A stretch of DNA of 64,000 nt from a virus (taxonomy: Duplodnaviria; Heunggongvirae; Uroviricota; Caudoviricetes): the IMG/VR virus record IMGVR_UViG_2878480445_000013; one strand, given 5' to 3'. Position numbers and translations under genes: made by a program. Below, piece after piece: positions 1 to 47,905 of this stretch; positions within the stretch are counted from its first letter, which is position 1, and the number at the start of each line of letters is the position of its first letter. The notes under the pieces were generated by a model. The model was not told the origin of the DNA. It worked only from the letters and a program-made list of their open reading frames with translations, and searched no databases.

Positions 1-547
1 TTTGTCCCCTCTTTCTTGTTGAGGTGACCAATCAATACAACTGCACAGTCATACGCAGATGCCCACATTCCAAGACGCTGCATCAGCTTTCTCGCCCTGC
101 CTGCAATCTGAAGGTCAGAATCACTCCCCAGATATGCCTGTATCGGGTCAATGACCACCAACCTTGGACGAAATTGTATAATCGCCTTTCTGATACGTTC
201 ATCATCCAGCGTCAAGCCACTGTTCATTTCTTCATTTATAAAAGCTACATTCCTACAATCTGCTCCACACGTTTCCAATCTCGGCTTGATGGTGTCTGAA
301 GCATCATCTTCCGAACACTGGTAAATAACTTTCTGGGGCATTCCAATAGACTTTCCATCCGGCATAGTTCCACCCTTTGATAATTCTGCAATCAGATTCA
401 TCATCATGGTAGACTTTCCGTCGCCGGGGTCGCCTTGCAGCAATGTGATCTTCCCGACTGCAATGAACGGATACCACAGCCAGCGAACAGCTGTTGCTTC
501 TACATCACTATATAATGTGAAAATTCCTGTTTCCTCTTTGCCTGTCA
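1..547 (-). CDS. AAA_25/RecA-like P-loop ATPase (RepA-like), 5' part; gene continues past window start
   Basis: Minus-strand translation from ATG at 547 reads MTGKEETGIFTLYSDVEATAVRWLWYPFIAVGKITLLQGDPGDGKSTMMMNLIAELSKGG, with Walker A GDPGDGKST. The frame stays open to position 1. It is absent from the ORF track because it is truncated. Confidence 0.6.
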
Positions 548-615
548 TTCCCTTTACCTTTCATTTGCAGTCTTTTCCTACATTTATATTATAAGAGCTG
601 CATGACATTTTGACT

Positions 616-663
616 GCTACCTATCATGTAGCACGTTCCATGTTTTGCTACATAGTAGGTAGC
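616..663. promoter_or_regulatory. Operator-like inverted repeat between the divergent ATPase and XRE genes
   Basis: Arms GCTACCTATCATGTAGCA (616-633) and TGCTACATAGTAGGTAGC (646-663) are near-perfect reverse complements with a 12-bp spacer. This position is typical of a CI/Cro-type switch operator. Confidence 0.5.
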
Positions 664-800
664 AAAATGGCCTTAGACCACACAGCAGATAGGGGTGTGG
701 CATTTTGCGGTCTTAAAAATCTCTCATATTCAGTTGCTATGTATTTTTCTCTGCGGGATAATCGTACCAGCCTTATGCGGGAAAACATAAGGAGGAACAC

Positions 801-1142
801 ATGGCTATTGACTATGAAGCCTTGGGCAAGCGTATTTCAAATGCCCGCAAACAAATTGGTATCACACAGGAGGCGCTCGGTGAACAACTTAACATGACCC
901 GTAAACACATCAGTGTTATCGAAACTGCTATCAACCGTCCCAGCCTGGATACCCTGGTTGATATCGCAAATGCACTGAATGTATCTGCAGATGACCTTCT
1001 CGTAGACAGTCTGACGCACTCGGCATCTACTGCAGATTCTGAGATTCACCGTCTGCTTTTAGACTGCAATACAACGGAACAGGAAATTCTTACCCGCACC
1101 GTAAAGGAACTGAAAGCAATTTTGTATGGTTTAGGAATCTGA
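801..1142 (+). CDS. XRE-family HTH transcriptional regulator (Cro/CI-like)
   Basis: ORF MAIDYEALGKRISNARKQIGITQEALGEQLNMTRKHISVIETAINRPSLDTLVDIANALNVSADDLLV is a classic HTH_3 helix-turn-helix. An AGGAGG RBS sits 6 nt upstream. Confidence 0.8.
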   Translation: MAIDYEALGKRISNARKQIGITQEALGEQLNMTRKHISVIETAINRPSLDTLVDIANALNVSADDLLVDSLTHSASTADSEIHRLLLDCNTTEQEILTRTVKELKAILYGLGI

Positions 1143-1306
1143 TTTTGTAACTCATTGACCACATAACAAAAGGCCCGCATAAGCCACAGCTGCACTTCGG
1201 CTCACTCCGGGGTGCTGTCTGTGGTTCATGCGGGCAGGAGTAAAAAAGAAGCCCGCCAGCGTTCCATGTAGGATTCTACACAGTGCGCCAGCGGGCAGTC
1301 ATTTAC

Positions 1307-1639
1307 TTACTTTTTCGGCTTAAACTTTGCGCTATAAGCATTTACTGCTGCATCGTGGATAAGCCATCCAAATTTTCTCAAAAAATCCAATCGCTCTTCA
1401 TCAGTCATCCATTTTGCAAGTGTATGAAGAACTCCCTCGTATCGTTCATTTTCTTTTCCGTTAAAAAACTTACCTCCGGGTCCCTGCTTAAATCTGACTG
1501 GAATCCCATTTTTAATTATCGTCCAGACAGTTGAACCACCATCTGTCTGAAACATGTCCCCGACCATGCCGTCCAGTTCTCCGGCATCCATTCTTTTCAG
1601 CAGTTCTCTTTCCTCACTCGTCATCTTCATCACCCCCAC
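1307..1639 (-). CDS. hypothetical protein (110 aa)
   Basis: Intact ORF in the operon direction. No recognisable domain. Confidence 0.45.
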   Translation of the reverse strand: MGVMKMTSEERELLKRMDAGELDGMVGDMFQTDGGSTVWTIIKNGIPVRFKQGPGGKFFNGKENERYEGVLHTLAKWMTDEERLDFLRKFGWLIHDAAVNAYSAKFKPKK

Positions 1640-2312
1640 AATCCTCTACTTTTATATCTTCCGAATCATACGCTCCCATTGGGTATTCTCGAATCCAGCC
1701 TTCGATTTTTAATGTGTGGCCACATTCTGGACATTCATAGCAATCTTCAGAATTAAAGCTGTACACAAGATCCGGTCCCATACCATTTTCTTTTTCGTAA
1801 GAGCTTTCATCATACATGAAGTCCTCAAGGTCAACATTTTCTTCATGACCGCAATGAGGACATTTGACTGCTCTTTCCAGAGAAACCGGTCGATATCCAT
1901 ACATATCCTCGATATCGATAAATTCCTCGCCTGCCGCTTCTTTTTCGCTGATGATGTCCCAATAATGCTGCGTCTGGAAAGTTTCAAATTCTGCGCTGTC
2001 ATCCAGAAGGTTATCCAGCATTTTTAAGGCATTCCTCTTTCGTTCAAGTTCATCATTGATATACTGTTTCCGTTCACGGATTGCCTGTTCAAGATCAATT
2101 TCTCCTGCTTGAAGTTTTTTTATATCTCCACAGGTTAAGCCAGATTTTGTAAGGACAACAATCCTCTGCAGGTTTTTGAAATCTGCTTCCGTATAATCCG
2201 TTGCCTTGTTTCCCACCGGCGGATGTTCTGGTTTGAAGATGCCCTCACGCTTAAAGAGTTTTATGCGCTCTGCATCAATGCCTAATTTTTCTTGTATTTC
2301 TTTTGGTCTCAT
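1614..2312 (-). CDS. MerR-type HTH regulator with C-terminal CxxC...CxxC zinc ribbon
   Basis: N-terminus MRPKEIQEKLGIDAERIKLFKREGIF resembles a MerR HTH. C-terminus has CPHCGH...CPECGH. ATG at 2312 is preceded by GAAAGGAGG. The track start at 2348 uses an upstream alternative start. Confidence 0.6.
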   Translation of the reverse strand: MRPKEIQEKLGIDAERIKLFKREGIFKPEHPPVGNKATDYTEADFKNLQRIVVLTKSGLTCGDIKKLQAGEIDLEQAIRERKQYINDELERKRNALKMLDNLLDDSAEFETFQTQHYWDIISEKEAAGEEFIDIEDMYGYRPVSLERAVKCPHCGHEENVDLEDFMYDESSYEKENGMGPDLVYSFNSEDCYECPECGHTLKIEGWIREYPMGAYDSEDIKVEDCGGDEDDE

Positions 2313-2422
2313 AACATTCGACCTCCTTTCTGAAACCGAGTATAGCACATAGGGACTTTGTCCCCGTCAAGCCCTAAATATCATTTTTTCTAATTTTAAG
2401 GATACTCGATTCCAGTTTTATT

Positions 2423-2836
2423 TCAAGGCTTTTCTAAATGATTTGTATATTTCAGGCTTCGATACGCATCTCCAATGAATCCTACAAATTCCGGACTCAT
2501 TGTCTCCACCACACTCTTTCCCTCTACATTCTGCAAAACAGCAATACTGACTCCGGACATATCATCTTCCCTCACTTCCAGTTCTCGTATCGAATCCGCC
2601 ACGGCCTCATCGATGAACGCAGCAAACTTTGCCCCATCAACATGGCTTTGCACTGGCATCGGTGCGCCACTTTCACCGAACAGCTGGATTATCTTTGGTT
2701 CAATGATACTCTCCACCTTTTTCAAGGCTTCTTCCTCTGACATCCGCCTCAGATAGCCTTTCATTGCACTTGCCACAATGATTTCCATCACTGTTGTTCC
2801 ATAATCCTCAACGGACAGCCAAGCTAACTTTTTCAT
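2423..2836 (-). CDS. hypothetical protein
   Basis: ORF starts at MKKLAWLSVEDYG (ATG at 2836). No domain recognised. Confidence 0.45.
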   Translation of the reverse strand: MKKLAWLSVEDYGTTVMEIIVASAMKGYLRRMSEEEALKKVESIIEPKIIQLFGESGAPMPVQSHVDGAKFAAFIDEAVADSIRELEVREDDMSGVSIAVLQNVEGKSVVETMSPEFVGFIGDAYRSLKYTNHLEKP

Positions 2837-2924
2837 GTCAATCACTCCTGCTATGTGTATTTCTGTATCCTCACCATATACCAAAACTCTGCACATAGCA
2901 ATATGTACGATAAAAAATCCGTAC

Positions 2925-2975
2925 AAAGCAAAAAGGGCCCTGCCGGTATGCATTTCCATACATCCGACAGGGCAT
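2925..2975 (-). terminator. rho-independent terminator after the recombinase operon
   Basis: Hairpin GGGCCCTGCCGG (2935-2946) pairs with CCGACAGGGC (2964-2973). On the minus strand it is followed by a U-run (complement of the A-run at 2926-2934). Confidence 0.5.
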
Positions 2976-2983
2976 CCTTTCCT

Positions 2984-5280
2984 TTATACAGCCTGCTCTC
3001 GTTTTGCTTTACTTCTCAGATATCTTCGGTACTGAACCGTATTGTCATACACCCGGTACGGGGCATCGACCAGCGTCACCAGCCCATCAAGGCTGCATTT
3101 CTTAAATCCCAGAAAACTGGTCAGTGTCCTCTGATTTCCACAGGTGGGCAGCGTTACACCAAAATTCGTTTCATAAAGTACGATATCGCCTTTCACCGTT
3201 CCCTTTTTCATAAAGGCGCAGTAGATACCTTTTTCAAAATGGAGCAGATCCGGTGCTTCCGCGATCCTCTCCGGCGTTATCTTCAATCGTCCTCGTTTCA
3301 GACTGGCGACCGCACCATCAACCGGCTCTCCATCCACATCCCGAAACAGGCTGCCCTGCACATCCAGCCCGTTCACCTTCAGCGGCATACCGGCGGCATT
3401 CTGTTCCGGCAGTTCTTTCAGGCAGGCAATGAAAAGGTCAAAATTTTTCTTCATAACCATAAGGGTTCCCTGTTCCTGGCTCAGCGTTTCTTTTTCCTTT
3501 CGGAAACTCTCAATTCGCTGCCGGATATCCTTTGCCAGACTTGCATAGGCTTCGATTTCAGACCCTTCTTCATAGTCAGCATGGTAGAAGCTCGTACCAA
3601 TATCATTTCCCGTCAGCCCATTTCGGATATCACTGTCAATCTCGTCCAATGTGATGTTGCCCTCCGCCAGTGATTCATTCAGTTCCAAATTCTGCTCCAG
3701 CACCGCATCCCGCATGGCCGTAACCTGACGGCCGATCGTCTCCTGCAGTTTTTCTTCCAGCTCCTTGATCTGGGCCTCCAGCGTTTCCAGTCTTTCCAAC
3801 GATACGCTGTTTCCTTTCATCTGCTGATACATCTGTTCACAGGCTTTATGAAAAAGTGTGCTGATTTCCGAAGCTTCATGGTTTTTCTCGTAATCCCGTT
3901 TCAGGCGGTACAGCATTTCCATAAAACTCTGTTCCAAGGCACATTCATGGATGCTTTCCGAAGGGCATCTTTCATTGGCTGCTTTTCTCTCGGCATCCGA
4001 CAATCTCCCGTGTTTTTCCCTGCAGTACAGCTTCTGATCCGGTGTGCCATTCTGTCTGGCTTTTCGCCCTCACGCTTTCCCATCTTCTGTTTACACCGCC
4101 ACACGGGATAAGCATATGCGTATTTTTCAAGGTAGATATCCATATCGCCACCAGTTGCTGCAAGGCTTCGGTCATCCGTGTACCCGGTTGCCACACCTGT
4201 ATAGGTCACACGGAAGAATCCCTCACCGCATTCTTTTCCGGCTCTTTCTCCATGTTCAAGAACCGCACCGCAGACCAGATTTCCAAATGGCGAGCCGGTG
4301 TATCCTCTCTTCTTCTTTTGAGCCGGTACCGAATCTCCAACCTTGCTGGGCTTTTCATAAAGCATCGTCTGAGCCTTGTCCCATGTACTGCGGTCAATGA
4401 TGCCAACATGATGGTTTTCTACATAATAGCGAGGTGCCTCACCTTTGTTGATCGTGGACCGATGGGTCAGGAAATCCTTTGTGATGGTCTTCTGCATCTC
4501 AATGTCACCCACATATTTTTCATTCCGAAGAACTGTGAGCACAGAACTTGCCGACCAGTTCTTTTTGTTCACCGTCTTTCTGCCAAGTTCATTCAGCTCC
4601 TTTGCAATACGGTTTGCCGTCTGTCCACATACATACCGTTCAAAAATATAACGAACCGTTTTTGCCTGTTCCGGATTGATCACCCATTCACCATTTTCAC
4701 CCTTGTCATACCCAAGCATCCGGTTCAGATCAATCTTCGGCTTTCCAGCCTGGAAATTTTTCTGGATCGACCAGCGGATATTGTCCGAAATGGACCGGCT
4801 CTCATCCTGCGCCAGTGCGGAAAGAATAGTCAAGATCAATTCACCGGTCGCATCCAGCGTATCGATGTTCTCTTTTTCAAAGTAAACACCAACCGGAGGA
4901 TTCTGCTGCCGAAGCTGGCGGACACAATTCAGGGTGTCCACCGTGTTTCGGGCAAATCGTGAAATCGACTTGGTCACGATATAATCCAGCTTTCCGTCCA
5001 GGGCATCTGCCATCATGCGGTTGAAATCCTCACGATGTTCCCTGCTGGTTCCTGATTTTGCCTCATCTGCGTAAATGCCTGCAAATCTCCATCCGGGTTT
5101 GTTCGTGATCAGATTTGTGTAAAACGCTTTCTGTGTGGTGTAGGAAGTCTGCTGGCTTTCATCCCCTGTGGAGACTCGACAGTATGCCGCCACACGGATA
5201 TTGCTCTGCACCTTCAGCTGACCACCGTTATGCACCGACCGCTTTGTAGCCGGTATCACTTCTACTTTTTTCTGTGTCAT
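2984..5280 (-). CDS. large serine recombinase 1 (resolvase + recombinase + zinc-ribbon domains), frame break near 3975-4000
   Basis: The 3901..5280 ORF has the resolvase catalytic region VAAYCRVSTGDESQQTSYTTQ...KSISRFARNTVDTL. The 2984..4003 ORF continues the C-terminal coiled-coil (ALEQSFMEMLYRLKRDYEKNHE), homologous to recombinase 2 residues AIEQGFMEMLYRLKRDYEENKE. The two parts are in different frames. Confidence 0.7.
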
Positions 5281-5299
5281 ATACTCTCCTCCGTTTCCT

Positions 5300-7291
5300 T
5301 CATATCTTTTTTCCGTTCCGACGCTTTCTATACTCTACCTGAACCGATTCTCCAAGGATCTCTGCTTCATTTTCCGCAAACTTTGGTTTTCCATCTTTGT
5401 CGTATACCCGATAATCCTTGAAGTCCTTTATAGTCCTTCTGGCTCCGAAAGCAGTAAATTCCATTCCGTAAATGGTCCGGTAATGGATCACATCTCCGTC
5501 CACTCTGCCAGATTCAATATTTACGGCATACATTTCCCGGCTGAAGGTTAGCATATCCGGTGTACTCAAGAACACACCCGATTCCGTCCACTGCGGTTCT
5601 TTATCATCCAGACCATGCACCACCAGCTTCTGTCCATAGCGGTTTTGCTCCGGCAGGGCCAGCAGTTCCTCCAGAAAATATTCGTACCTCTTTTTCAGGA
5701 TGATGCCGCCTTCACTGCTTTCTTCCAAAATGTGAAGTTCGTTTTCCAGTTCTTCTTTCCGCTTCAGAATATCCTTCAGCAGTTCATTGTACATTGCCTC
5801 GGCACTTCCAGCCGCAGGTGTGTAAACACCATCCACACGCTGTTGATCCATCCCCTCCATAATAGCGTCCATCTGAATGCTCCCATCCCGAATGGACTCC
5901 TGTAAGCTCTCCTGCAGGAAAACCCGTTCCTGCTCTGCCATTTTCTTCTGTGCTTCCATCTGCTTTTTCATAAGGCGTTTACATTCCTGTTCCAGCTTCT
6001 GAAGCAGTTCCCTGAGTTCCAAAATCCGTCCTGAATGGTCTTCCGGCTCCCTCTGGCATTCACGGTATTTGACCGCCAGCTCCGACTGCTCTTTGTTTTC
6101 CTCGTAATCCCGTTTCAAGCGGTAAAGCATCTCCATAAAGCCTTGTTCAATAGCGACCTCATAAAGCTCCTCTGTGCAGTCTTTATCCGAACAGCGCATC
6201 TTCCCAACACCATAAAGCGGAAGTCCCTGCCGTTCCTTTGTATCTTCAATGGACTCTGCATCCACCCAGTATGCGGCAATCTTTCTCCTCTTGTGGACCA
6301 TCGTCTTTCCGCACGCTGGACACGAAAGGTTTACATAGCAGATATTGAGAGGATCACGGCTTAGTAGCGGCGGCCTCCGTTTCATTTCACTTTGCACGAT
6401 CAACCAGGTTGCCCGGTCGACGATCGGTGCGTGGTGGTCCCTGATGTAATACTTTGGAAGCTGCCCTCTGTTCGGAACCGCCTTATGGGAAAGAAAATTG
6501 CTGGTCACATATTTCTGCATCTCCAAATCGCCCACATACTTCTCATTTAGGATCACATTCGAGAAGCTGCTGGGGTTCCAGTCCGTGCCAGATACCGTTT
6601 TCCAGCCTCGCTCGTTCATCTCGTTAATGATCGTTGCACGGCCGGCTCCGCAGGCATATCTCCGAAAAAGGTAACGCACCGGTTCCGCCTGCTCTTCATT
6701 GATGATCCATTCTCCGTTTTCCCCTTTGTCATATCCGATCATCCGGCTTAGATGAACCATCGGCTTCCCTTCCTGGAACCGCTTCTGATAAGACCAGTGG
6801 ATGTTATCCGAAATGGAATGGCTTTCTTCCTGAGCAAGTGCGGAGTAAATGGTCAGGATCACCTCACTGGTGGAATCCAGAGTGTTGATGTTTTCCTTTT
6901 CAAAAAAGATTCCCACAGGAGGTGTCAGCTGTTTCAGCTGTCTTGCGCAGTCGAGGGTATCCACGGTATTCCTTGCGAATCTCGATATGGATTTTGTGAC
7001 TATTAAATCGATTTTCCCATTTCTCGCATCCTCCAGCATCTGGTTGAACTCATCCCTATGCAGGCGGCTTGTTCCGGTGATTCCCTCATCTGCATAAATT
7101 CCTGCGAATGTCCAGCCCGGATGCCGCTGTATCATATCCGTGTAGAATGCCTTCTGGGTCCGGTAGGACGTTTTCTGTTCATCTGAATCTGTGGACACTC
7201 TGCAGTAAGCTGCCACCCTTAACCCCTTCGGCTTTTCCTGGGCAGCCTTTTGAGCCGCCGCTTCCTTTATCAATCGTAAAACCTCTGACAT
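5300..7291 (-). CDS. large serine recombinase 2 (intact, 663 aa)
   Basis: Contains LRVAAYCRVSTDSDEQKTSYRTQ, KSISRFARNTVDTL, a recombinase domain, and a CPACG zinc ribbon with a C-terminal coiled-coil. Confidence 0.85.
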   Translation of the reverse strand: MSEVLRLIKEAAAQKAAQEKPKGLRVAAYCRVSTDSDEQKTSYRTQKAFYTDMIQRHPGWTFAGIYADEGITGTSRLHRDEFNQMLEDARNGKIDLIVTKSISRFARNTVDTLDCARQLKQLTPPVGIFFEKENINTLDSTSEVILTIYSALAQEESHSISDNIHWSYQKRFQEGKPMVHLSRMIGYDKGENGEWIINEEQAEPVRYLFRRYACGAGRATIINEMNERGWKTVSGTDWNPSSFSNVILNEKYVGDLEMQKYVTSNFLSHKAVPNRGQLPKYYIRDHHAPIVDRATWLIVQSEMKRRPPLLSRDPLNICYVNLSCPACGKTMVHKRRKIAAYWVDAESIEDTKERQGLPLYGVGKMRCSDKDCTEELYEVAIEQGFMEMLYRLKRDYEENKEQSELAVKYRECQREPEDHSGRILELRELLQKLEQECKRLMKKQMEAQKKMAEQERVFLQESLQESIRDGSIQMDAIMEGMDQQRVDGVYTPAAGSAEAMYNELLKDILKRKEELENELHILEESSEGGIILKKRYEYFLEELLALPEQNRYGQKLVVHGLDDKEPQWTESGVFLSTPDMLTFSREMYAVNIESGRVDGDVIHYRTIYGMEFTAFGARRTIKDFKDYRVYDKDGKPKFAENEAEILGESVQVEYRKRRNGKKI

Positions 7292-7297
7292 TTTTCC

Positions 7298-9726
7298 TCA
7301 CCCTTTCTTTACATATTTTTTCCGGTAGCAGTTATCCCGCATGGCCTGTCCGTCAAAATAAGATGCCGTATACCGGTAATCTTCTATATTACTGTACATG
7401 ACAACCTCTGTCCTTGTGTCATCATACCAGTGAACCGTATAGTTCAACGGGGAATGGACCGTAATAGAAAGGACAAATGCCTTGCAGTAATCTGAGGTCA
7501 CTCCATTCAAAAACTGCACCACGCCATCCCTTCCTTTCGGAAGTTCCTTCATCCATTCAATTGCCCGTTCTCTTCTCTTGTGGTCATTCTCCAAATCCTC
7601 CCAGTATCCTTCCAGATACTCCAACCGTTCTTCCAGATGCTTTTTCTCATCCATATCCCGGTCAAGTTTTTCTTTCAACCTTCTGATTTTCTCAGCATTG
7701 CTCTGAATGACTGCCTCGTCGATGCTCTCATCTCCCAGCAGTTTGCGTCTGGTCTGCATCACATCGTTCTGGCTTTCCAGAAGACGCAGTTTTTTCCCGC
7801 TGCTTTCCATTCCAATCTGAAGGGTGGCAATCTGCCGTTTGTAAAAAGCACGGTCCCGTTCCATAAAGTCGGTATGCTGGATGTTTTCCAGCCTTTTGAT
7901 CATCTGTGGAACAAAGTCATCAGCTTCCTTTGTAAAACCTTCAAACTGCTCTCCGTAACGGCCGCTCATGATGTCCGCCACTTCCACATTATCGTGGATG
8001 GGCTGTGCGCTCAGCCGGAACCGCTCAATGATCGCCTTGCGGAAAGCCCTCACAATCTGCTCTTCATAAACTCTCTCGGTGTGGCAGATTCTCTTTCCAT
8101 TGTAGATTTCCGCTGTTGGACAAAACCAGACCGGATAGTACTTGGAATTTCTCACACGGAAAAACCTGCCGCATTCCCCACACAAAATCCTTCCTGAGAA
8201 TGGCTTTGATCCTTTCTTTACTCCCTTCTCTTTTTTGGCGGCATTGGCTCTGCGGATTTCCTGAACAGTTTCAAACAGTTCTTCGTCAATGATCGCCGGA
8301 TGGTGGTTCTTCACCAATACTGCGGAAGTTCTCCATTATTCCGCTGGATGTTATGGTTCAGAAAGTCCACGGTGTATTTTTTCTGGATCAGGACAGCTCC
8401 TGTATATCGTTCCCTTTGTATCATCTGAGAAATAATCCTTCCAGTCCATCCTTCTTCCAGATCACTGTTCAGCTGTCCTTTCTTTGAGTTCTTTTTTCTG
8501 GCTTTGACCGCCACGGTCTCAGGAGCTGGAATCCGGTCATAATTCAAACCTCTGGCAACATCTGTATAGGCAGTACCCTCTGCCACTTCCTGAAAAATCC
8601 GGCGCACGATTTTTGCTTCTTCTTCCACAATTTCGATATCCCTATACTGATATCCACTTTCTGTCGTGACCATCTTTCCATTGTAGCGATACCCATATAT
8701 GACCATGTTCTTTACCTCACCTCTCGGATAGCGCATCTTATTTCCAAGATTGATGTTTCTGGAAATACTCCGGCTTTCTTCCTGGGCAATCGCCGCAAGT
8801 GTCGTTAGAATAAAATCACTGGTCGGATCAGCTGTGTCCAGATTTTCTTTCTCAAAAAGGATCGTCACATTGTTGTCATGCAAAGTATTAAGGGCGGTCA
8901 TAAAATCCGCCGTATTTCTGGAGAAACGGGAAATCGACTTGCATACAATACGGTCTATTTTCCCTTCCCTGCAGTGCCGCAGAAGTCTTTTGAATCCAAC
9001 ACGCTTATCCTTGACCGTTCCTGAAATTCCATAATCGGAGTAAACCCCGATTGGATTCCAGTCTGGATTGTTTTCGATCAGCTGATGAAAATACCGTTCC
9101 TGCGTTTCGTAGGAGTTTTCCTGGTCACTGGAATCAGTGGAAACTCGAATGTAAGCGGCTACGTTCAGATGCCCTTCCTTTTCCTTTGTCCTGCGAAAAG
9201 AAGCTGTGGAAATAAATTCATTTTCTTCTTTCATTGCTTCTGCCTGTGGCTGGAAGACCGCCTCGAACTCGCTTCTCAACCCACCGACCCGTTCCATAAC
9301 AGGAACTGCCTGCTGCATTTTCTCCTTTGCAGCCAACGCCTTCTGGATCAGGGAAGCAATTCCGGCATCTCCGTTTTCCTTGGATTCGGATAACGGCAAC
9401 TTTGTCTTTTTCTCTTTTTGTTGGGTAGACATCTCTTGGCGCACAACGCTTTCCTGCAAAAAAGAAGATGCAGCCGCCTTCTTTTCAGAGAGGTCAGCTG
9501 CACCACTTTTTTCTTTCACCGCTTCATAGGATTTCTTTTCCTGCACAGGCATCTGAGTCACAGATGTGGTTTCCGGCAGAACTGATTCGCCCTGTCCGGT
9601 CGCTGCCATCAACATCTTTGAAAGCTCGGCTGCTGAAGCATTCGGGCGGCTTTTCTGTTTCTGCTGTACGGTACTTTTGACCGTTGCGCTCTGCAGTTTC
9701 TGCAAAAAATCATTTGCTGTACTCAT
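7298..9726 (-). CDS. large serine recombinase 3, single frame break at 8311-8317; possible internal start near 9234
   Basis: The 8311..9726 ORF has NVAAYIRVSTDSSDQENSYETQ...KSISRFSRNTADFM and ends ...GELPQYW*. The 7298..8317 ORF begins VKNHHPAIIDEELF. Together they give the canonical LPQYYVxNHHxxIID motif if one base is restored. The first 164 residues are a low-complexity K/E/Q/S-rich extension. Confidence 0.7.
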
Positions 9727-9810
9727 CTTGTTCTCTCCTTTCCGCCCATCTGCTTTTCTCTTCGGGCAGTCACATATTCCCTCTACTGCGTGATATTATC
9801 AAGTAAATTC

Positions 9811-9860
9811 GGTGCAGAAAGACGGAGAATAATCCACCCGATTATTGTCCTATCTGCACC
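9811..9860. other. 50-bp imperfect palindrome, candidate attP (or attL/attR) site for the adjacent serine recombinases
   Basis: Sequence is GGTGCAGAaagacGGAGAATAATCcacccGATTATTGTCCtaTCTGCACC. The outer 8-bp arms are perfect and the inner 11-bp arms have 1 mismatch. Size and quasi-symmetry match serine-integrase att sites. It lies just upstream of recombinase 3. Confidence 0.35.
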
Positions 9861-9905
9861 ATCCAATATGTAAAGGCCCTGCCTGAAAAGACAGAGCCGT
9901 ATCTC

Positions 9906-11384
9906 TTACAATTTCTTGGCAAAATCAAGGCTGATCCAGCCATTACGCTTACCGGCATAGGCCTTCAGCAGACCCCAACGGGTTGCTCCCTCACCGTCTG
10001 CTTCCTCTACAATTGTAAATACGCCTTTTCCAGTGTACTGCCCGGTCTTAGCATAGTTCGTACCAGGTCCCTTACGGATATTAAGGTCACTGATTGAAAC
10101 GCGTACCGCATACGGGCAGTTTGCCTTAACTTCCGGGTAGACTGCCTTACCCGCCGGGTCATAAACGAAATAGCCCGGATTGACATCCGCACACTGCTTT
10201 GCGTAAGCCAAGTCATGGAAAGCACCCTTCTGAGAAGCCGCATTCTGCCAGCTTTTGCGGACACGGTACCAGCCGGAGATAACCGTACCCTCAGAAGCCT
10301 TTGCCACATCATACTGCGTAAGGTTCCAACGCTCGATGATACTGCAAAGATTCTGTACATAAGTGTGGCTGGTCGCATAACCACCATCTTTGATCAGCTG
10401 TACCGCTTTCTTGTAATCCGTGCAGCCGGCCAAACCTTCATAGCGTTTCTTACTGCCGTTCATCGCACCGAGCAGATATGCGGCATGGTCGGTAATGGAA
10501 TCCTCCACACAACTGTACTTTCGGAAGTCGGCTGTAATCGTGACCATCGAGCCATCATCATTCTGCTCCTGTGTTTTCTTGGTATAGACAGACTTGCCAT
10601 CCCAACTGCTGCCGCTCCAGCTGTTCCCGGAAAGCGAAGTCTTCATGCCAAAGCAGTTATTAGCATTCTGTGCCAGCTCAGATTTACCGTAGCCGGACTC
10701 AAGAATGAACTGAGCCATTGACACGCAAGCAAGAATGCCAGTGGTTTTCTGGTTCGCAGTAAACAGCGGACCGATCTTTGCAACTGCTTCTGCTTCCGAG
10801 AGATTTTTCAGTGAAGAAGCCTGCATGCCAGATGAGGATGAACCGCCCAGTGCTGCAGTCACCTTCACGGCCAGATCACCAAGACGGGCATACAGCCAGT
10901 TTCCAGGGCAGCTTTTGTTTGCAAACCAGCGGTGAACTGTCAGAACCATCTCGTCTGCGGCAGGTACATAATTGAGAGTTTTATTCTTATCTCCCAGCCA
11001 CAGAAGTTTTTTCTTGCCGTTTCGTCGGCAGATATCGGTACAGAGCTTAATGAGTGAACTGTACACCGCACTGTTCATGGCATACGGCTCATTCATATCA
11101 CTGGCACATTCGATGGTGACCGCCCTCTGGTCATTGGCATTGCTGGACGAACACCAGCTGCGGTTCTTTTCCTCGACACAAAGCGACACACGGCCATCTG
11201 TACCGATACCGTAGTTGCAACTTGCCTGACGGCTCGTACTGGTAAAACAGCCGCAGATGCTTTCCGCAGAAAGCTGACCGACCACACAATGCGGCGTAAT
11301 GCGGTCGATGCTGTGTGTCCTCTGACCGGAATGGTTCGGAGAGAGCTTGGTGTAAACAACGAGTGGACTATTGGTATATCCCAT
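9906..11384 (-). CDS. endolysin: N-acetylmuramoyl-L-alanine amidase + glucosaminidase + C-terminal SH3-like repeats
   Basis: N-terminal amidase_2/PGRP motifs (MGYTNSPLVVYTKLSPNHSG...HCVVG...NYGIG). Central LytD-like glucosaminidase (ILACVSMAQFILESGYGKSELAQNANNCFGMK). C-terminal repeats GWYRVRKSWQN... and GVFTIVEEADG... are SH3b-like. Confidence 0.8.
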   Translation of the reverse strand: MGYTNSPLVVYTKLSPNHSGQRTHSIDRITPHCVVGQLSAESICGCFTSTSRQASCNYGIGTDGRVSLCVEEKNRSWCSSSNANDQRAVTIECASDMNEPYAMNSAVYSSLIKLCTDICRRNGKKKLLWLGDKNKTLNYVPAADEMVLTVHRWFANKSCPGNWLYARLGDLAVKVTAALGGSSSSGMQASSLKNLSEAEAVAKIGPLFTANQKTTGILACVSMAQFILESGYGKSELAQNANNCFGMKTSLSGNSWSGSSWDGKSVYTKKTQEQNDDGSMVTITADFRKYSCVEDSITDHAAYLLGAMNGSKKRYEGLAGCTDYKKAVQLIKDGGYATSHTYVQNLCSIIERWNLTQYDVAKASEGTVISGWYRVRKSWQNAASQKGAFHDLAYAKQCADVNPGYFVYDPAGKAVYPEVKANCPYAVRVSISDLNIRKGPGTNYAKTGQYTGKGVFTIVEEADGEGATRWGLLKAYAGKRNGWISLDFAKKL

Positions 11385-11455
11385 AATGATTTCCTCCTTC
11401 TAAAAAAAATTGAGGCCCAGATCACTCTGAACCTCGTGCTGTGGTTATTTGGTTG

Positions 11456-12160
11456 TTACGGAATCAGCAGTTTCATGCCGACCCGGATAGCGTTGGAAGT
11501 CAGCCCATTCAGCACACGGAGATCTGCACAGCGGCTGCCACTCCCCAGTTCCCTTTCTGCGATCTTCCAGAGATTATCACCGGGAACCACAGTATAGATC
11601 TTGCTGGCTGTGAAGGCATAGGTATCCGCACTGTTAAGAACGTAGGCCAAACCACTCACCGCTTCCGGGCACTTTATTTTCAGCCAGCCCGCACAGAATT
11701 CCACGATTTCAATCAGTGTGTTCCTTTTGTAAACGGTCACGACTTCTGCGCCAGTGTCCGGCATCTCCCGAATATTCATGAGGGTCTTGAGTTTGCCGTA
11801 GGCAATGGTTGCCGGAAGCTCCTCTGCAGTCGGGAACTCGTTCTCATCCACTTCAGCCTCTGCTTCTTTCTCCGCTGGGGTATCTTCCACAGGGACTGTG
11901 GTTTCTGGCTTTTCTTCCGGGATATCGTCCACGACTGCTTTCTCTTCACTCTCATCTGCACCAGTATCTGGTACAGCCTCTTCCGGATAAATCACGTTGC
12001 CGTCATTGTCGAACACACGGCTGCCGGGGTTTTCATCACACTTGGCTTTTGCATTCGCCAGCAGACGGTACGCTCCCAACTGGGATGCCTCATCTTCCCA
12101 GACTTCACGCACACGATAATAGCCGTTTGTCAGCTTTGCGGGATACTCTTTCTTACTCAT
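11456..12160 (-). CDS. LysM-domain cell-wall-binding protein (SH3-like N-terminus, acidic linker, C-terminal LysM)
   Basis: C-terminus YTVVPGDNLWKIAERELGSGSRCADLRVLNGLTSNAIRVGMKLLIP is a LysM motif. N-terminus YYRVREVWEDEASQLGAYRLLANAK resembles the endolysin SH3-like repeat. Confidence 0.6.
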   Translation of the reverse strand: MSKKEYPAKLTNGYYRVREVWEDEASQLGAYRLLANAKAKCDENPGSRVFDNDGNVIYPEEAVPDTGADESEEKAVVDDIPEEKPETTVPVEDTPAEKEAEAEVDENEFPTAEELPATIAYGKLKTLMNIREMPDTGAEVVTVYKRNTLIEIVEFCAGWLKIKCPEAVSGLAYVLNSADTYAFTASKIYTVVPGDNLWKIAERELGSGSRCADLRVLNGLTSNAIRVGMKLLIP

Positions 12161-12213
12161 ATTGCTTTCCTCCTACTAATGAGGGAGAGACTCATCACCT
12201 CTCCCCGTTTTCC

Positions 12214-12632
12214 TTACTCTTTGTTCTGCTTGTCGCTCGTTTCTTCCTTCAGCTGTGCCAGCATCTCCTTCAGCTTATCCGGCACCGGAAGGCCAATGAC
12301 AGCCGCATTTTCGAGGCAGCTCAGACCTTCATTTGCCAAATAGAAAAACACAACAGCAGTCTGATAGCTGCGCCATTCTGAAGAATCTGCGTATCAATGA
12401 TGTTGGCAATGCCAACCAGTACGAAGATACACACCTTCTTGGCAATACCCTTAAAGCCAACTTCAGAAGAAAGTTCATGCTTGATGGCTGCTGCCAACAC
12501 CCCGGTGAAGTAGTCGCAGACCACAAACACCACCAGTGCATAAAGGAAGCCATCAAATCCGCCGAAGAACCAGCCCAGGAAACCACCCAGACCTGCGAAC
12601 ATCCACTCAATCTTATCGATCACATTCTGCAT
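12214..12632 (-). CDS. holin, phage_holin_4_1 family; frame break near 12335-12345
   Basis: ORF 12321..12662 reads MQNVIDKIEWMFAGLGGFLGWFFGG...GIANIIDTQILQNGAAIR then LLLCFSIWQMKV*. The +2 frame continues AVVFFYLANEGLSCLENAAVIGLPVPDKLKEMLAQLKEETSDKQNKE* to a stop at 12214, which is the canonical holin C-terminus. Confidence 0.7.
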
Positions 12633-12768
12633 AATCTTGTCCTTTCCAGCCCTTTTGGGCATAAAAAACAGGCGGTATCTCTGCCGCCCTTACGAAAAAA
12701 TACTCCTTCTATAATGAACACTGTTTCACAGCAAATAACAGACACTTTGCGTGAAAATCAGTGGAAAT

Positions 12769-15417
12769 TTATTTTCCGAATGCACGGATTACAGATCCTA
12801 CCACACATTCTCCGATTCTGGCGTAGCCTTCCGTACTGCAATGGAGCTGGTCGCCATTAAACGGATACGGCGAAGATCCCGTATATTTTTCCAGAATAAT
12901 GCTGCCATTCCGCTTCTGATAATAGGACTGTCCGTTCACATACCGCTGTGGTACACTTCCAACCACCCTGCCGGATGCATCTAGCTGATATTTGGCATAC
13001 TGCTCGTTCACAGCATTCTTCTGTGCGCCAAAGACACTCCAAGTCCTGCGGTTGATCCCACTCTCATGCCAGAGATCACAGACTGCCACATTATTTACCT
13101 GCGCCACAGCCTTGATCGTATCTGACAGTTTTTCCATTGTCTGGCCAGTTCCGGTCGGATATTCTTCGTATCCGTCTGCATCCACATACGGATATTTGCC
13201 CGCACAATGCGGCGTTGCCACCAGCACATGACAGAGCAGATTCCCGGCATCCTCCAGTTCTTCATAGATGCGGTTTAAAAGATACTGGATTCGACCACAG
13301 ATAGTCTCCTTTTCCGGGTAGCAGTCTCCTACCGAACCGAGTACCGTTGCTCTTTCGTTGTAGGCCGGCAGCACAATGATCAGGCTGACACCTTCTACGT
13401 CAGCGGCCATCAGCGGCCGCAGGACACCATTCTTATCCGTTTCTGCATTGTACGTTCCATCCAGACCGTTGTCACCGTCCGTCATCCGAAGGATTCCGAT
13501 ACCGCCCTTTGCATGGGTAGCAACATTCATACCGAGCAATTCTTCCAGCTTCTTCTGCCATTTTCCAGCCGCCGTAATGCTGTCACCAATGACCAGAGCC
13601 TTCTTCCCTTTCCAGCTACCGGACAGTTCCGCATATCCGGCAGCAACAGCTTTCTCTGCGGTATCAGATGCCACTGCATGATCTGCCTTTTTCGCTGTCT
13701 CCGCTTTTTCAGCATGATCCGCTTTTACTGCCACTTCCGCTTTTTCTGTAAGAATGGCGTGTGTCGCATTCTTCACAGCGGAGGCACGTTCCGTTATGCT
13801 GCTGTGACTGAGTGCCTCAATCTCCTCATTGGAAAGCCCAGTCACGTTCAGCACCCACATGGTCACAACAAAGGAAGTGTAATTGGAACCCGTCAACTGC
13901 ACCGCAAAATTCAGATTATCCTTTCCACCAGCATATTCGTAAACCAGATTCATTTGAAACGGAAGCGTTGCTTTGTTCAGTGTTCCACACGGCACACGTT
14001 TTGCCCAGTTTGGAATACCCGGTTCGATGATGCCAATGGATACCTCTCCCAGCTGTGTGTCATCCGTTTCTACAGATTCCACCCTGCCAAAGACAAGATA
14101 CTTCCCGGCAGCCAGACCACTCAGCCGTACTCCGCCGAACACGCCCCAGTCTTCGTTGCGGGTCACGGCAGCCTTTGCCCACGCATACATTGTGTCCTTT
14201 TCCTGAAACTTGCTGGAGAAAGGAATCATTTCAGAAAAGACAGGGCATCCATATGCTACATTGCCCAGCATTTCCCGTGTCTGGTCTGAAATGCCGGTTC
14301 TGTCTGCATACGGAACGCTCATGACTTTTCCGGCAATGCCCCATGTGTCATAATACTGAAGGATGCTGTCCTCAACCGGACTGCTGCTGATCAGTGACAG
14401 AACTTTCTGCAGTTCATCATCACTCTGTCCCGTCACATCCAGTAGGACACATCTGCCGTCACACTCCACTACAGCATCATTCCTTGCAACACACGGAGAA
14501 ATATCCAGCCTGTATGCATTCTCCAGAATCTCTCCGAAAAATACCACATAGATTTCATTTCCGTGAGCAACTCTTACCACCTTCGTCACATGAGTATTCA
14601 GATTTGCACCTTTGGAATCATACTGGTAGCAGCTCACACCGGCACAGGAGCCGGAAATTTCCCGGATCTTGGAGATGAACAGATATTTTCGGAATTTGCC
14701 CATCAGCATATTGGTAAAGCGATGGTAGAACTGACCGTAATCCGTAGTTCCCGTGATCCGGTAATCCAGAAATTCTCCTGCTTCACATTTAGCCCCCAGC
14801 AGAGCCGGCATCGCAGCCTTTGGGAACACCTCACCCAGATTACCATTGGAACCGGCAAGTGCCAGCTTTGCTCCGGTGATCCCATTCTCCACAGCCAGAC
14901 TGTACTGCCCACGGATTGCTTCACCAGCGGACGGATACACCGTTCCATCCTGCCCAACCCGGACATCAACCAGTTCCGCCGCATAATCTGCCTTAACGTC
15001 TGTAGAAGCTGTCACGTTTGCATCCAGCCGCTTGTTCATCTGTTCCACAGCTGTGTTCATGGCATCTTCTGTTTTCTGCATGGCAGACTGTGCATCGGAT
15101 ACTTTGGTGTTTACCCGGCTCTCTGCTTCCGATACTTCTTTGCTCATGGATGCTTTCGTTTCCGAAAGATCCTTGTGCATTCCTTCCACATCTTCTGCAA
15201 CATCCGTTTCCAGTCTGTACATCTGGGCGTTGAAATGACTGCACAGGCTCCAATAATCCGTATCGGACAGCACTGTACCTGCAGGGACTGGCTTTCTGGA
15301 AATATAACCATCCCCACTTTCCGCGTCCAGAACGATTGTCAGTTCCTCATATTCCTTTTTCTGATTCCATACGCCATCGTGTTTCGGAATGATCCGCTTA
15401 CCCTTAAAAGTTCCCAT
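12769..15417 (-). CDS. tail fibre / receptor-binding protein with C-terminal SGNH (GDSL-like) esterase domain, 882 aa
   Basis: The N-terminal 170 aa is 60-65% identical to the 17916..19226 protein. An ADHAEKAETAKKADHA linker precedes KKALVIGDSITAAGKW (SGNH block I), with further SGNH blocks downstream. Confidence 0.7.
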   Translation of the reverse strand: MGTFKGKRIIPKHDGVWNQKKEYEELTIVLDAESGDGYISRKPVPAGTVLSDTDYWSLCSHFNAQMYRLETDVAEDVEGMHKDLSETKASMSKEVSEAESRVNTKVSDAQSAMQKTEDAMNTAVEQMNKRLDANVTASTDVKADYAAELVDVRVGQDGTVYPSAGEAIRGQYSLAVENGITGAKLALAGSNGNLGEVFPKAAMPALLGAKCEAGEFLDYRITGTTDYGQFYHRFTNMLMGKFRKYLFISKIREISGSCAGVSCYQYDSKGANLNTHVTKVVRVAHGNEIYVVFFGEILENAYRLDISPCVARNDAVVECDGRCVLLDVTGQSDDELQKVLSLISSSPVEDSILQYYDTWGIAGKVMSVPYADRTGISDQTREMLGNVAYGCPVFSEMIPFSSKFQEKDTMYAWAKAAVTRNEDWGVFGGVRLSGLAAGKYLVFGRVESVETDDTQLGEVSIGIIEPGIPNWAKRVPCGTLNKATLPFQMNLVYEYAGGKDNLNFAVQLTGSNYTSFVVTMWVLNVTGLSNEEIEALSHSSITERASAVKNATHAILTEKAEVAVKADHAEKAETAKKADHAVASDTAEKAVAAGYAELSGSWKGKKALVIGDSITAAGKWQKKLEELLGMNVATHAKGGIGILRMTDGDNGLDGTYNAETDKNGVLRPLMAADVEGVSLIIVLPAYNERATVLGSVGDCYPEKETICGRIQYLLNRIYEELEDAGNLLCHVLVATPHCAGKYPYVDADGYEEYPTGTGQTMEKLSDTIKAVAQVNNVAVCDLWHESGINRRTWSVFGAQKNAVNEQYAKYQLDASGRVVGSVPQRYVNGQSYYQKRNGSIILEKYTGSSPYPFNGDQLHCSTEGYARIGECVVGSVIRAFGK

Positions 15418-15578
15418 AAAAAATCTCCTTCCTGCCGGTGTTTATCCGGCTGTCCTCATAACAGTTTCGGATAGTCACCCGGTCAGGGAGGAGTTCTTTT
15501 CTTATGGCGGTCAGGTTTTACCCCCCCTCGAACATTTTTTCGATATACCGCTTTTTCTTCATTTTAGTGTCCTTTCTC

Positions 15579-17931: not shown

Positions 17932-19226
17932 TGCGCCATTTGTGTTGTCCTCGGCCCAAAATAATAAGATACCGGCAGCCTTGGTGCTGCCATTGCATCG
18001 ATCAGTTTCAAACGCTCAGCCAGGCTGTCATATTCCACACCTGCAGAGTCTGTATGACAGTCCGTCACCTCTTTCAGGATTGCCTCGTGCGCCCGCAAAA
18101 GCTGTGGTAGGGATGCCTCTCCGGCTCTGGCATTGATGATTTCCTGCTCCAGAATCCGCAGACAGTCATGCTCAGAAACATATTTCCATCCAAGATCTTT
18201 GACAGCTGTTGTTTCATACGCATACACATAAAACTCACTGTCCTGTGCAGCAGCTTTTTCCCTGCGGATACAGAAATAGAGTTTTCTGGATGCCGTGTAC
18301 TTCGTCACAAACTCTTCCCAGCGGCTTTCGGAAAAATCCAGATCAAACGCTGCCAGATAGCCGTTTTCCTCATTCAGCTTTACTGCACTGAGGGGCACAC
18401 AGCCAACTTTTCCATTATCACTGCCCCATGCATTCGGGGAGTTCGTAATGATAGCCTGTCCTTCATACGGCACCTGATTACTCAGAATAACGATCCGGAA
18501 CGACTTTTCTTTGCACTCTTCATAGGAACCGAAGAAACCAAGAAAGGTTCCCGTGTAACCAGAAACATGATGAACCAGGCAGCGGACAGCTGCACCTTCC
18601 ATACTATTCTGAACAGTATTCTCATTCCGGTATGCAGTTCCCATTTCTACCGGAACGATTTTTCGTAGCAGGCCTGCTGTAATACTGCGCATGGCTTCCC
18701 CGGCACTCGGATAGGTAGTCCCTTCACTGTCCACTCTGGTATCCACCAGTTCTGCGGCATAGTCCGCCTTGCTGTCCGTGGATGCCGTCACATTTGCATC
18801 CAGACGTTTATTCATCTGGGCAACTGCCGCATCCATGCCATTCTGAGTACTCTGCATTGCTTTTGTCGCCGCGTTGACATTTGACGTTACACGATTCTCC
18901 GTTTCGGACAGTTCTTCCGCCATTTTCTGATGAGTCTGCGAAAGTTCCTCACTCATCGCAGACTTCGTATTGGCAAGGTCTGTGTGCATTCCTTCCACAT
19001 CTTCTGCCACATCCGTTTCCAGACGGTGCATCTGGGCATTGAAATGGCTGCACCTTGCCCAGTAGTGCTCGTTTGTGAGTAGCGTACCGGCGGGAACATC
19101 ATACCGGCTGATATAGCCATCCCCCGTTTCCGGGTCAAGAACGATCATCAGCGGTTCATAACTTCTCGCCTTGTCCCAGTCTCCCTCATGCCGGGGAATG
19201 ACTCTCTTTCCAAGAAATTCTCCCAT
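17916..19226 (-). CDS. tail fibre N-terminal module protein (paralog of the N-terminus of the 12769..15417 protein)
   Basis: MGEFLGKRVIPRHEGDWDKARSYEPLMIVLDPETGDGYISRYDVPAGT...CSHFNAQMHRLETDVAEDVEGMH...AQMNKRLDANVTASTD..YPSAGEAMR aligns with the 882-aa protein N-terminus. ATG at 19226. Confidence 0.65.
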   Translation of the reverse strand: MGEFLGKRVIPRHEGDWDKARSYEPLMIVLDPETGDGYISRYDVPAGTLLTNEHYWARCSHFNAQMHRLETDVAEDVEGMHTDLANTKSAMSEELSQTHQKMAEELSETENRVTSNVNAATKAMQSTQNGMDAAVAQMNKRLDANVTASTDSKADYAAELVDTRVDSEGTTYPSAGEAMRSITAGLLRKIVPVEMGTAYRNENTVQNSMEGAAVRCLVHHVSGYTGTFLGFFGSYEECKEKSFRIVILSNQVPYEGQAIITNSPNAWGSDNGKVGCVPLSAVKLNEENGYLAAFDLDFSESRWEEFVTKYTASRKLYFCIRREKAAAQDSEFYVYAYETTAVKDLGWKYVSEHDCLRILEQEIINARAGEASLPQLLRAHEAILKEVTDCHTDSAGVEYDSLAERLKLIDAMAAPRLPVSYYFGPRTTQMAHCQKV

Positions 19227-19255
19227 TGTATCTCCTTCCTGCCGGATCTCCGGCA

Positions 19256-32349: not shown

Positions 32350-32367
32350 CTCTTTATAATAATGTAA

Positions 32368-32385
32368 GCAGAGCCGAAGCCCTGC
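32368..32385 (-). repeat. copy B of the direct repeat / UUCG hairpin (see 31479-31496)
   Basis: Identical 18-mer GCAGAGCCGAAGCCCTGC located 17 nt after the major tail protein stop codon. Confidence 0.6.
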
Positions 32386-32401
32386 TGTGTGTGTCGGTCA
32401 C

Positions 32402-47812: not shown

Positions 47813-47834
47813 CATGGTATGTTCTCCTTTGTTT

Positions 47835-47905
47835 TTTCCTTGTTTTCCCTTTCGGTATGTGCATATTACCGTCAGGTGCGGATAATAGCAAGGATATAAA
47901 AGAAC
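47835..47905 (-). promoter_or_regulatory. promoter-leader repeat copy 8 (drives the amidoligase gene)
   Basis: Plus strand reads ttccctttcggtatgtgcatattaccgtcaggtgcggataatagcaaggatataaaag. Confidence 0.5.

Follow-up and report, generated by a model that had tools for sequence, protein, structure and literature searches.

The analyzed sequence, hereafter the window, is a 64,000-nucleotide (nt) stretch of the IMG/VR virus record IMGVR_UViG_2878480445_000013, assigned to Caudoviricetes. It contains three paralogous genes for large serine recombinases (LSRs), named here LSR-A, LSR-B, and LSR-C in the order of transcription, which, in a head-to-tail arrangement on the minus strand, immediately follow the endolysin gene and are preceded by a 50-bp quasi-palindrome (Table 1). 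On balance, we favor the interpretation that this locus is the recombinase operon of an integrated siphovirus of ~80 kb, with the A-C pair (in the window, the A-B-C trio) as the ancestral integrase set, the palindrome as an operator or structured element, and a fourth recombinase, LSR4, encoded beyond the window start, as part of a swap-in module. The pair or the trio follows the endolysin gene in more than 100 loci, which allows for comparison of natural variants.

An informative case is provided by two groups of relatives (loci L195–L197 and L198–L199) that have A and C only, the recovered DNA containing no further recombinase gene. Their LSR-A proteins are, respectively, 58 and 55% identical to LSR-A of the window, and the A and C proteins of one group are 66–73% identical to those of the other. 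In both groups a PBECR4 cassette occupies the place of the LSR4 cassette, and the layout of the right end is the same, consisting of palindromic iterons, a terminator, and the phage (P) arm of the attachment (att) site. The three loci with a host junction read (L195, L196, and L198) are inserted at the same codon position of ugd, just before SRIIVGTD, and the palindrome is again internal to the phage. Insertion of A-C-only relatives at a single ugd codon points to A-C as a working integrase set. The pair alone, as the sole candidate in the DNA recovered from L195–L199, apparently can serve as an integrase.

The window is a part of an integrated temperate siphovirus prophage, both junctions of which are outside the window. 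It is 100% identical to an internal part (positions ~13818–77817 by coordinate arithmetic) of the 146-kb bacterial contig QUIO01000005.1 (NCBI GCA_003480145.1). The integrated state follows from the phage/host junctions in relatives, which are found 3.97 kb past the window start and ~12.6 kb past the window end; coordinate arithmetic places the left junction near window coordinate 76,630 and yields a prophage of ~80.6 kb. The host is a Blautia-like human-gut Clostridia genome, where the prophage sits in a polysaccharide locus. An earlier reading made from the sequence alone had proposed an excised or circular phage genome; the position of the window inside the 146-kb contig, with host junctions elsewhere, does not bear this out. 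A megablast search of region 2400–10000 against INPHARED phages gave no match.

Recombinase genes and their A-C core

The products of the trio are members of the large serine recombinase (serine integrase) family, as judged by their catalytic, recombinase, and zinc-ribbon/coiled-coil parts. The Pfam domains Resolvase (PF00239) and Recombinase (PF07508) were identified in LSR-A, LSR-B, LSR-C, and LSR4, and the catalytic R-V-S-T motif is invariant in all of them. Within the trio, the Pfam domain Zn_ribbon_recom (PF13408) was found in LSR-A only. LSR-C has no Pfam zinc-ribbon match and aligns with LSR-B over the full length; LSR4 has no zinc-ribbon match either. The AlphaFold model of LSR-B, built from a 30-sequence alignment (mean pLDDT 71), comprises the catalytic and recombinase domains, a zinc-ribbon-like part (strands at residues 330–377), and a helical hairpin of ~165 residues (long helices at 378–544). 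In a Foldseek search, this model matched the full-length serine integrases 9y66, 9dxh, phiC31 (9rah), and LI (4kis) over ~560–580 columns. The nearest solved catalytic domain is 3G13 (E = 7.6e-42 to LSR-C; 44–51% identity to the LSR-B model), and the catalytic domain of TP901-1 was matched as well. 3G13 comes from a conjugative-transposon recombinase of Clostridioides difficile, for which only this domain has been solved, the element being conjugative and not viral.

LSR-A differs from its paralogs by an N-terminal extension. Its catalytic motif VAAYIRVS begins at residue 189 (at 126–232 in homologs), and the preceding segment (residues 1–188, window 9726..9163) corresponds to 125–230 amino acids (aa) in homologs. 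The extension contains conserved islands, DFLxxLQK, ASFLP, KSTQQK, an amphipathic xALIxKAL helix, and SEFxxVF, connected by variable linkers. The islands at the start and near the catalytic domain are kept across homologs of 52–99% identity, whereas the linkers vary in length, and thus the extension is not mere low complexity. It belongs to the first gene in the order of transcription, which is the third by coordinate.

LSR-B is the only intact open reading frame (ORF) of the trio in the window. LSR-A is divided into ORFs of 471 aa (9726..8311) and, in another frame, 339 aa (8317..7298), and LSR-C into ORFs of 459 aa (5280..3901) and 339 aa (4003..2984). An identical LSR-B protein has index entries in 256 blocks of a public collection, and most of the contigs concerned encode unbroken neighbors of 809 and 765 aa. 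A comparison with two independent metagenome assemblies (L002 and L010) over 17.3 kb showed zero substitutions and six gaps, all of them at homopolymers that are shortened in the window, namely CC to C (twice), G9 to G7, AA to A, and, within the recombinase genes, TTT to TT (at 8318) and CCC to CC (at 4060). The same type of defect recurs in the contig, where the holin call is lost and the tail and primase(-polymerase) genes are split. We are therefore fairly certain that the frameshifts in LSR-A and LSR-C are assembly errors: to judge from the alignments, all differences are homopolymer deletions, they also affect unrelated genes, and decay should have added substitutions. The opposite explanation, in which LSR-A and LSR-C are pseudogenes of a decaying prophage locked in the chromosome, would agree with the presence of identical split genes in the deposited NCBI assembly and with the many deleted or truncated relatives (L001, L016, L019, L090, L166, and L174). 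However, it has to account for the uniform nature of the six differences and for further broken genes of the same pattern elsewhere in the contig, and we consider it quite improbable.

Homopolymer losses of 1–2 nt in GCA_003480145.1 are observed at window positions 16471, 15927, 15528, 12361, 8318, and 4060, and likewise in L012 compared with L011. Any ORF-based reading of the source contig under-calls genes. The three tandem paralogous LSRs that the sequence-only reading described as following the lysis genes and closing the late operon are confirmed by gene order and Pfam, and so is the N-terminal extension on one of them. The lengths of 660–810 aa that it gave hold for near-identical relatives (809, 663, and 765 aa) and fail in the window, where it had read through two broken ORFs. 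Of the domains assigned to each protein, Resolvase and Recombinase were recovered in all three and the Pfam zinc ribbon in the first one only, to which the LSR-B model adds a ribbon-like part and the helical hairpin. The fourth LSR had been missed.

Rearrangements and deletions with breakpoints inside LSR-C are observed in several relatives (L001 at 12287, L019 at 12400–12867, L166 at 3184, L058, and L067), which suggests that illegitimate or homologous exchange is concentrated in the paralogous recombinase genes. A site-specific break inside LSR-C, considered for the truncated genes of L001 and L019, was rejected, since the breakpoints differ (codons ~89, 92, 138, 216, and 227) as expected for ordinary rearrangements.

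In most relatives LSR-A is followed by LSR-C; the A-B-C order is observed in the lineage of the window and in one more lineage, whose B protein is only 64% identical. Orthologs cluster by their position in the array. LSR-B is ~40% identical to LSR-C over the full length, and C orthologs are 55–73% identical to each other. Recent duplication of LSR-C as the origin of LSR-B was rejected, given this identity of only ~40% and the existence of its own orthologs at 64–72%. The A-C pair thus is the conserved core of the phage family, with B as a third, C-type paralog maintained in a sublineage. The LSR-A stop is separated from the LSR-B start by 6 nt, and LSR-B from LSR-C by 19 nt that include GGAGG; with this spacing behind a single conserved promoter, the trio forms one operon. 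The locus therefore has the feature of heteromeric multi-LSR systems, at least two adjacent and presumably co-transcribed paralogs conserved as a set. By analogy with CcrA/CcrB, A and C, and here A, B, and C, would probably act as a hetero-oligomer, and this ancestral set would recombine the attP that results when the ends of the prophage are joined with targets that are situated inside surface-polysaccharide loci.

Control region and prophage ends

On the minus strand, the endolysin stop is followed by a hairpin (9898..9875), the palindrome, 8 nt, TTGATA, 17 nt, GAATAT, the 5' leader, and the LSR-A start. The sequence of the hairpin differs in relatives with its pairing kept by compensatory change; a simple terminator scan did not call it. 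Similarly, a consensus promoter scan did not list the promoter at 9774..9802, which was recognized by eye and by its conservation. The promoter and the palindrome are kept in relatives with LSR-A only 52–64% identical, and in phage lineages with other LSR types the place of the palindrome is taken by another quasi-palindrome of ~50 bp. In 11 viral loci (L128, L134, L137, L142, L145, L146, L149, L151, L153, L155, and L156), an insert of ~1.2 kb separates the endolysin gene from the palindrome. The breakpoint coincides exactly with the left edge of the palindrome, which indicates that the palindrome travels with the LSR promoter. In L090, the genes from LSR-A to LSR-C have been lost by a deletion starting in the LSR-A leader, and the palindrome and promoter remain. 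An Rfam search over positions 1–12000 gave no match.

The palindrome, whose position directly upstream of the trio agrees with the earlier reading, contains two nested 11-nt inverted repeats, each 91% complementary, and has no second copy in the window. All 68 loci compared, which represent integrated prophages, carry it whole, and it is never split into attL and attR halves. This set pools all fetched loci, 32 of which came from an IMG/VR search that used only the right half of the palindrome as the query, and none of these 32 has another left half. Among the 12 distinct versions of the palindrome in the 68 loci, the two unequal arms are nearly invariant, keeping their primary sequence and a conserved 3-nt asymmetry, whereas each of the five central positions has three or four different bases. 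The crossover site of a serine integrase must share the central dinucleotide with attB. A free-running 5-nt center hence argues against attP and fits a spacer between protein-binding half-sites or the loop of a hairpin. The palindrome is more likely a regulatory site ahead of the LSR operon than a phage attachment site. Lying directly upstream of the -35 box, it could be a protein-binding operator or a structured element that controls the recombinase operon in the lysogen. A resemblance of the palindrome arms to the att P arm, which would have implied the same binding protein, was dropped, the local alignment being no better than that of shuffled sequences (best p ~0.03, uncorrected).

At the right junction, 3.97 kb beyond the window start, the common sequence stops at ...AAAGGTGGTGGAATGT, and at least four different right flanks come after ...GGTGGTGGAATGT. 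The left arm terminates in an XRE/ImmA module, and the left junction lies downstream of a DUF6809 gene, inside a terminator hairpin loop. A phage-free version of the latter locus was found in the contig pair L047/L048, which matches the left flank up to the terminator loop. The empty site reads ...CCCTCACTGTGATGTATGTA / TAGC..., and the occupied one ...CCCTCACTGCGGTGTATGTA / CACAGTGAGGG... (a slash marks the junction). The junctions were located to within a few bases and have an ATGT(A) core in common. The start codon of a 271-aa gene was rejected as the left junction, because L047/L048 carry the 271-aa and DUF6809 genes without a phage. No tRNA that could be an att target was found within the window.

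Surface-polysaccharide loci make up most of the mapped insertion sites of the phage family and all of those read in chromosomal contigs (flanks were read in L001–L008, L018, L047, and L195–L198). Examples are provided by insertions inside ugd, at the 5' end of a family 2 glycosyltransferase (GT2) gene, in GT4 genes, and after the DUF6809 gene near the AraC and dTDP-sugar isomerase genes. An exception is the viral contig L015, which is flanked by an SNF2-helicase gene. The host genes beyond the right end are variable and include those for AraC, dTDP-sugar isomerase, LicD, Wzz, and glycosyltransferases. Among species-representative genomes, the hosts include Blautia faecis, B. schinkii, other Blautia, Faecalibacterium, Clostridium fessum, and Wujia. 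Lysogeny of the phage family may alter the capsule or exopolysaccharide (EPS). Tandem elements are also observed: in L065 (IMG/VR UViG_3300014919_000032, 1–19800), a prophage right end is followed, after 4.4 kb, by a second 271-aa/DUF6809 target module and the left end of a second prophage, and in L086 two LSR4-type cassettes are found in series.

Target choice and the function of the palindrome

The LSR4 cassette, consisting of HTH_3, AAA_25, LSR4, and proteins p233 and p169, occupies window positions 1–1142 and extends past the window start (L002 16151–21263), between the trio and the right junction. The comparison of L018 with L198 shows it as a 5-kb block, flanked by a terminator and by the iteron region, that replaces the PBECR4 cassette. 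It is 65–99% identical across 72 viral loci, in which the post-lysis LSR set consists of none to three genes of different lineages. Pairs of LSR4 and p233 at 43–47% identity are widespread in Clostridia. No direct repeat bounding a nested LSR4 element was found, and the boundaries in L018 and L198 are devoid of an obvious att-like repeat. Two loci considered as free-standing LSR4 elements, L016 and L174, were rejected as heavily deleted prophage remnants. We propose that the cassette is a swap-in module, which may supply or retarget integration in the lineage of the window.

For this lineage there are two readings: the A, B, and C proteins act on an ancestral attP at the phage ends, or LSR4 has taken over the choice of target. 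The former is favored by the junction, located in a backbone apparently common to LSR4-less phages, and by the LSR4 proteins of types I–III, which are ~90% identical in spite of the separate junction and target of type III. The latter is favored by the nearness of LSR4 to the right junction (1.7 kb, vs. 7 kb for LSR-C) and by the contrast between L018, which has LSR4, and L198, which has none: LSR-A and LSR-C of the two are 91 and 93% identical, but L018 is inserted at the 5' end of a GT2 gene and L198 in ugd, as would fit target choice by LSR4. Both these facts weigh against the interpretation that we prefer, as do several further results. The predicted circular attP junctions, searched in two versions, were absent from IMG/VR and had four matches in JGI metagenome contigs, all of them unrelated chance; the palindrome is unusually stable as RNA (-24.3 kcal/mol, z = -5.0, none of 200 shuffled sequences as stable); and the proposal of an operator or structured control element draws on position and conservation. 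It is accordingly possible, albeit doubtful, that LSR4 and its conserved neighbor p233 form the integrase that makes and reverses the insertion of the window, with A-B-C as an accessory (a second system, e.g., for ugd targets) or a relic with another role. LSR4 is the recombinase nearest to the right junction and lies beside a repressor/operator pair, and the conservation of its cassette, set against the variable post-lysis LSR set, and the wide occurrence of LSR4 and p233 pairs speak for this role. On the other hand, the junction is at the end of the P arm/iteron region, apparently homologous in LSR4-less phages; in L018 the cassette is situated between terminator X and the iterons, and thus is internal and not at the phage end; and near-identity of LSR4 does not prevent type III from having its own junction and target.

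The preferred interpretation of the palindrome as an operator or structured control element has two competitors. In the sequence-only reading it was a candidate attP of the trio. The 50-bp size, the imperfect dyad symmetry, and the location by the first recombinase gene do resemble the known attP sites of serine integrases, and every LSR lineage has its own palindrome at the same spot. Nevertheless, the site is whole in 68 of 68 integrated copies, no locus retrieved by its right half has another left half, the five central nucleotides are hypervariable, and only 8 nt separate it from a conserved -35 box, in a window that is internal to a bacterial contig with host junctions elsewhere. Moreover, phages with A-C as the only recombinases have their junction 3.5 kb downstream of LSR-C, here too with an internal palindrome. 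The attP assignment is thus already contradicted for the sampled integration events, and we regard it as extremely improbable. Alternatively, the palindrome could be an RNA element that binds no protein, either a second terminator or a stabilizing 3' hairpin of the late transcript. The hairpin stability given above, the loop-like variable center, and the position after the late operon are consistent with this, but the stem is followed by no U-tract, and the terminator scan did not call it. In addition, a separate terminator-like hairpin, evolving by compensatory change, already lies upstream, whereas primary sequence is retained in the palindrome arms, and the palindrome stays with the LSR promoter when the 1.2-kb insert parts it from the endolysin gene. 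An exclusively RNA-level function therefore seems unlikely.

A wider generalization can be offered only tentatively, and we consider it rather unlikely in its full form. Tailed phages of gut Lachnospiraceae and Faecalibacterium might share a modular multi-subunit serine-integrase system, with an A-C core (the N-terminal extension being on A), an optional C-type third subunit, and an exchangeable LSR4 and ATPase cassette. Combinations of these modules would direct insertion to different genes of hypervariable capsule/EPS loci (ugd, glycosyltransferase genes, and the terminator after the DUF6809 gene), and the lineage-specific palindrome would act as a pseudo-att site for autoregulation, bound by a recombinase. 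If so, the natural variants (A-C only, A-B-C, and either LSR4 state) would be a ready-made dissection of the division of labor among LSRs and of the reprogramming of target choice.

Known multi-recombinase systems and other features of the phage family

Multi-recombinase modules are known from the staphylococcal cassette SCCmec (CcrAB), the triplets of streptococcal integrative and conjugative elements (ICEs), as well as the gin element (GirAB/GirC); the division of labor among the paralogs is mostly unknown. The likeness to such mobile elements noted in the earlier reading is apt. Here, a multi-LSR integration module is found in a phage family abundant in human-gut metagenomes, with a conserved control region and with pair, trio, and cassette variants. 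Natural comparisons are the pair vs. the trio and phages with vs. without the LSR4 cassette, each with mapped capsule/EPS insertion sites. The module is of possible relevance to lysogenic change of surface polysaccharides and as a source of new integrases for genome engineering.

As in CcrA/CcrB of SCCmec, adjacent co-oriented LSR paralogs form a conserved pair at one end of the element, and A and C are the only recombinase set found in LSR4-less relatives. In contrast to SCCmec, the carrier is a phage rather than a cassette, LSR-A has an extension of 125–230 aa, a third paralog and a fourth LSR cassette are present, and the targets are polysaccharide loci instead of rlmH. This likeness is one of gene arrangement, and a joint need for A and C would be expected by analogy. 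The integrase triplets of Streptococcus ICEs similarly consist of three consecutive co-oriented LSR genes that group by array position, and the elements integrate so that particular genes are disrupted or adjoined; concerted action of the three integrases is an assumption only (Ambroset et al., 2016; PMC4701971). The comparison is by description. In Firmicutes ICEs the array is at the extremity beside the target gene, whereas in the lineage of the window it is 7–14 kb from the junction with the LSR4 cassette in between, and the carrier is a siphovirus with terminase, portal, capsid, tape measure, and lysis genes. Furthermore, the family core is a pair, and the trio is found in a sublineage.

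The gin element of Bacillus cereus has a girA-girB operon and a distant girC; only GirC with its recombination directionality factor (RDF) GirX carries out the observed rearrangement, and girAB is dispensable (PMC5595907). The co-occurrence of an LSR paralog operon and a separate LSR in one element makes gin a direct precedent for integration by LSR4. However, gin has no phage genes, and here relatives without a separate LSR integrate with the operon pair alone. The integrases of phiC31, Bxb1, LI/A118, and SPbeta (SprA) share with the described LSRs the catalytic domain, recombinase domain, zinc ribbon, and coiled coil, as well as the temperate lifestyle. Unlike the described family, with two to four LSRs and a junction kilobases away behind iterons, those phages have one integrase gene, usually adjoined by attP.

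Downstream of the trio, the gene order in relatives is a 176–178-aa protein, a MerR-like protein, a 105-aa protein, the divergent HTH_3 gene, the AAA_25 ATPase, LSR4 (610 aa), 233-aa and 160–169-aa proteins, and host genes. The window start cuts the AAA_25 gene, and LSR4, the two proteins that follow it, the iterons, and the right att junction are beyond it. The ATPase has weak PHROG matches to transposition-protein and DnaB-like families.

Table 1. Features of the recombinase locus and adjacent regions (window coordinates)
Feature	Position	Strand	Basis
AAA_25 ATPase, first 182 codons; remainder of the cassette beyond the window start	1..548	-	annotation of relatives
Operator-like inverted repeat between HTH_3 and AAA_25; two 19-nt arms, 89% complementary	615..664	.	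sequence
HTH_3 (XRE-type) repressor-like gene, divergent from AAA_25, start of the LSR4 cassette	801..1142	+	annotation of relatives
MerR_1-type helix-turn-helix protein, 232 aa, Cys-rich C-terminal part; candidate DNA-binding accessory/regulatory factor	1614..2312	-	annotation of relatives
178-aa protein, no assigned function; after the LSR operon in most surveyed relatives, 43–100% identity	2423..2959	-	ORF and relatives
LSR-C, 765 aa when intact; split at 4060	2984..5280	-	Pfam and intact relatives
LSR-B, 663 aa, intact; C-type paralog	5300..7291	-	ORF, Pfam, AlphaFold model
LSR-A, 809 aa when intact; ~185-aa N-terminal extension, then Resolvase, Recombinase, zinc ribbon; split at 8318	7298..9726	-	Pfam and intact relatives
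Sigma-70-like promoter of the LSR operon: TTGATA (9802–9797), 17 nt, GAATAT (9779–9774)	9774..9802	-	by eye and conservation
50-bp quasi-palindrome, arms of 21 and 24 nt, center of 5 nt	9811..9860	.	inverted-repeat search, alignment of 68 loci
Hairpin right after the endolysin stop (GGCUCUGUC/GGCAGGGCC, then UUUACAUA), likely intrinsic terminator	9875..9898	-	sequence and alignment of relatives
Endolysin (Amidase_2, Glucosaminidase, SH3_3), last late gene before the recombinase operon	9906..11384	-	Pfam; same gene order in all relatives

About five palindromic repeats are located just inside the right att junction (L002 20900–21080, ~3.6–3.8 kb beyond the window start). These iterons have the sequence AAGTGA-N6-TCACTT in the lineage of the window and ATGATAnTATCAT in other lineages, and a comparison of the right ends of L018, L195, and L198 demonstrates that the array is present with or without the LSR4 cassette. 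They may be binding sites of an accessory protein or an RDF. Long imperfect hairpins with T-runs, probably strong terminators, recur at module boundaries of the right arm (L002 15995–16050 and ~20830–20890; L018 16591–16662; L195 ~17720–17790); the part of them inside the window has no Rfam match.

Elsewhere in the window, siphovirus genes encode an SNF2 helicase, primase-polymerase, methylases, terminase, portal, ClpP protease, capsid, tape measure, and tail proteins. Accessory genes with probable anti-defense or accessory functions encode a SAM synthetase (55415–56482), ParB-N6/N4 methylase (51506–52801), C5 methylase-like protein (49398–50879), amidoligase (46877–47944), SPFH/Band_7 protein within the structural block (31512–32483), and DUF6036 nucleotidyltransferase (28892–29611). 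In relatives, a PemK toxin gene is called as well.

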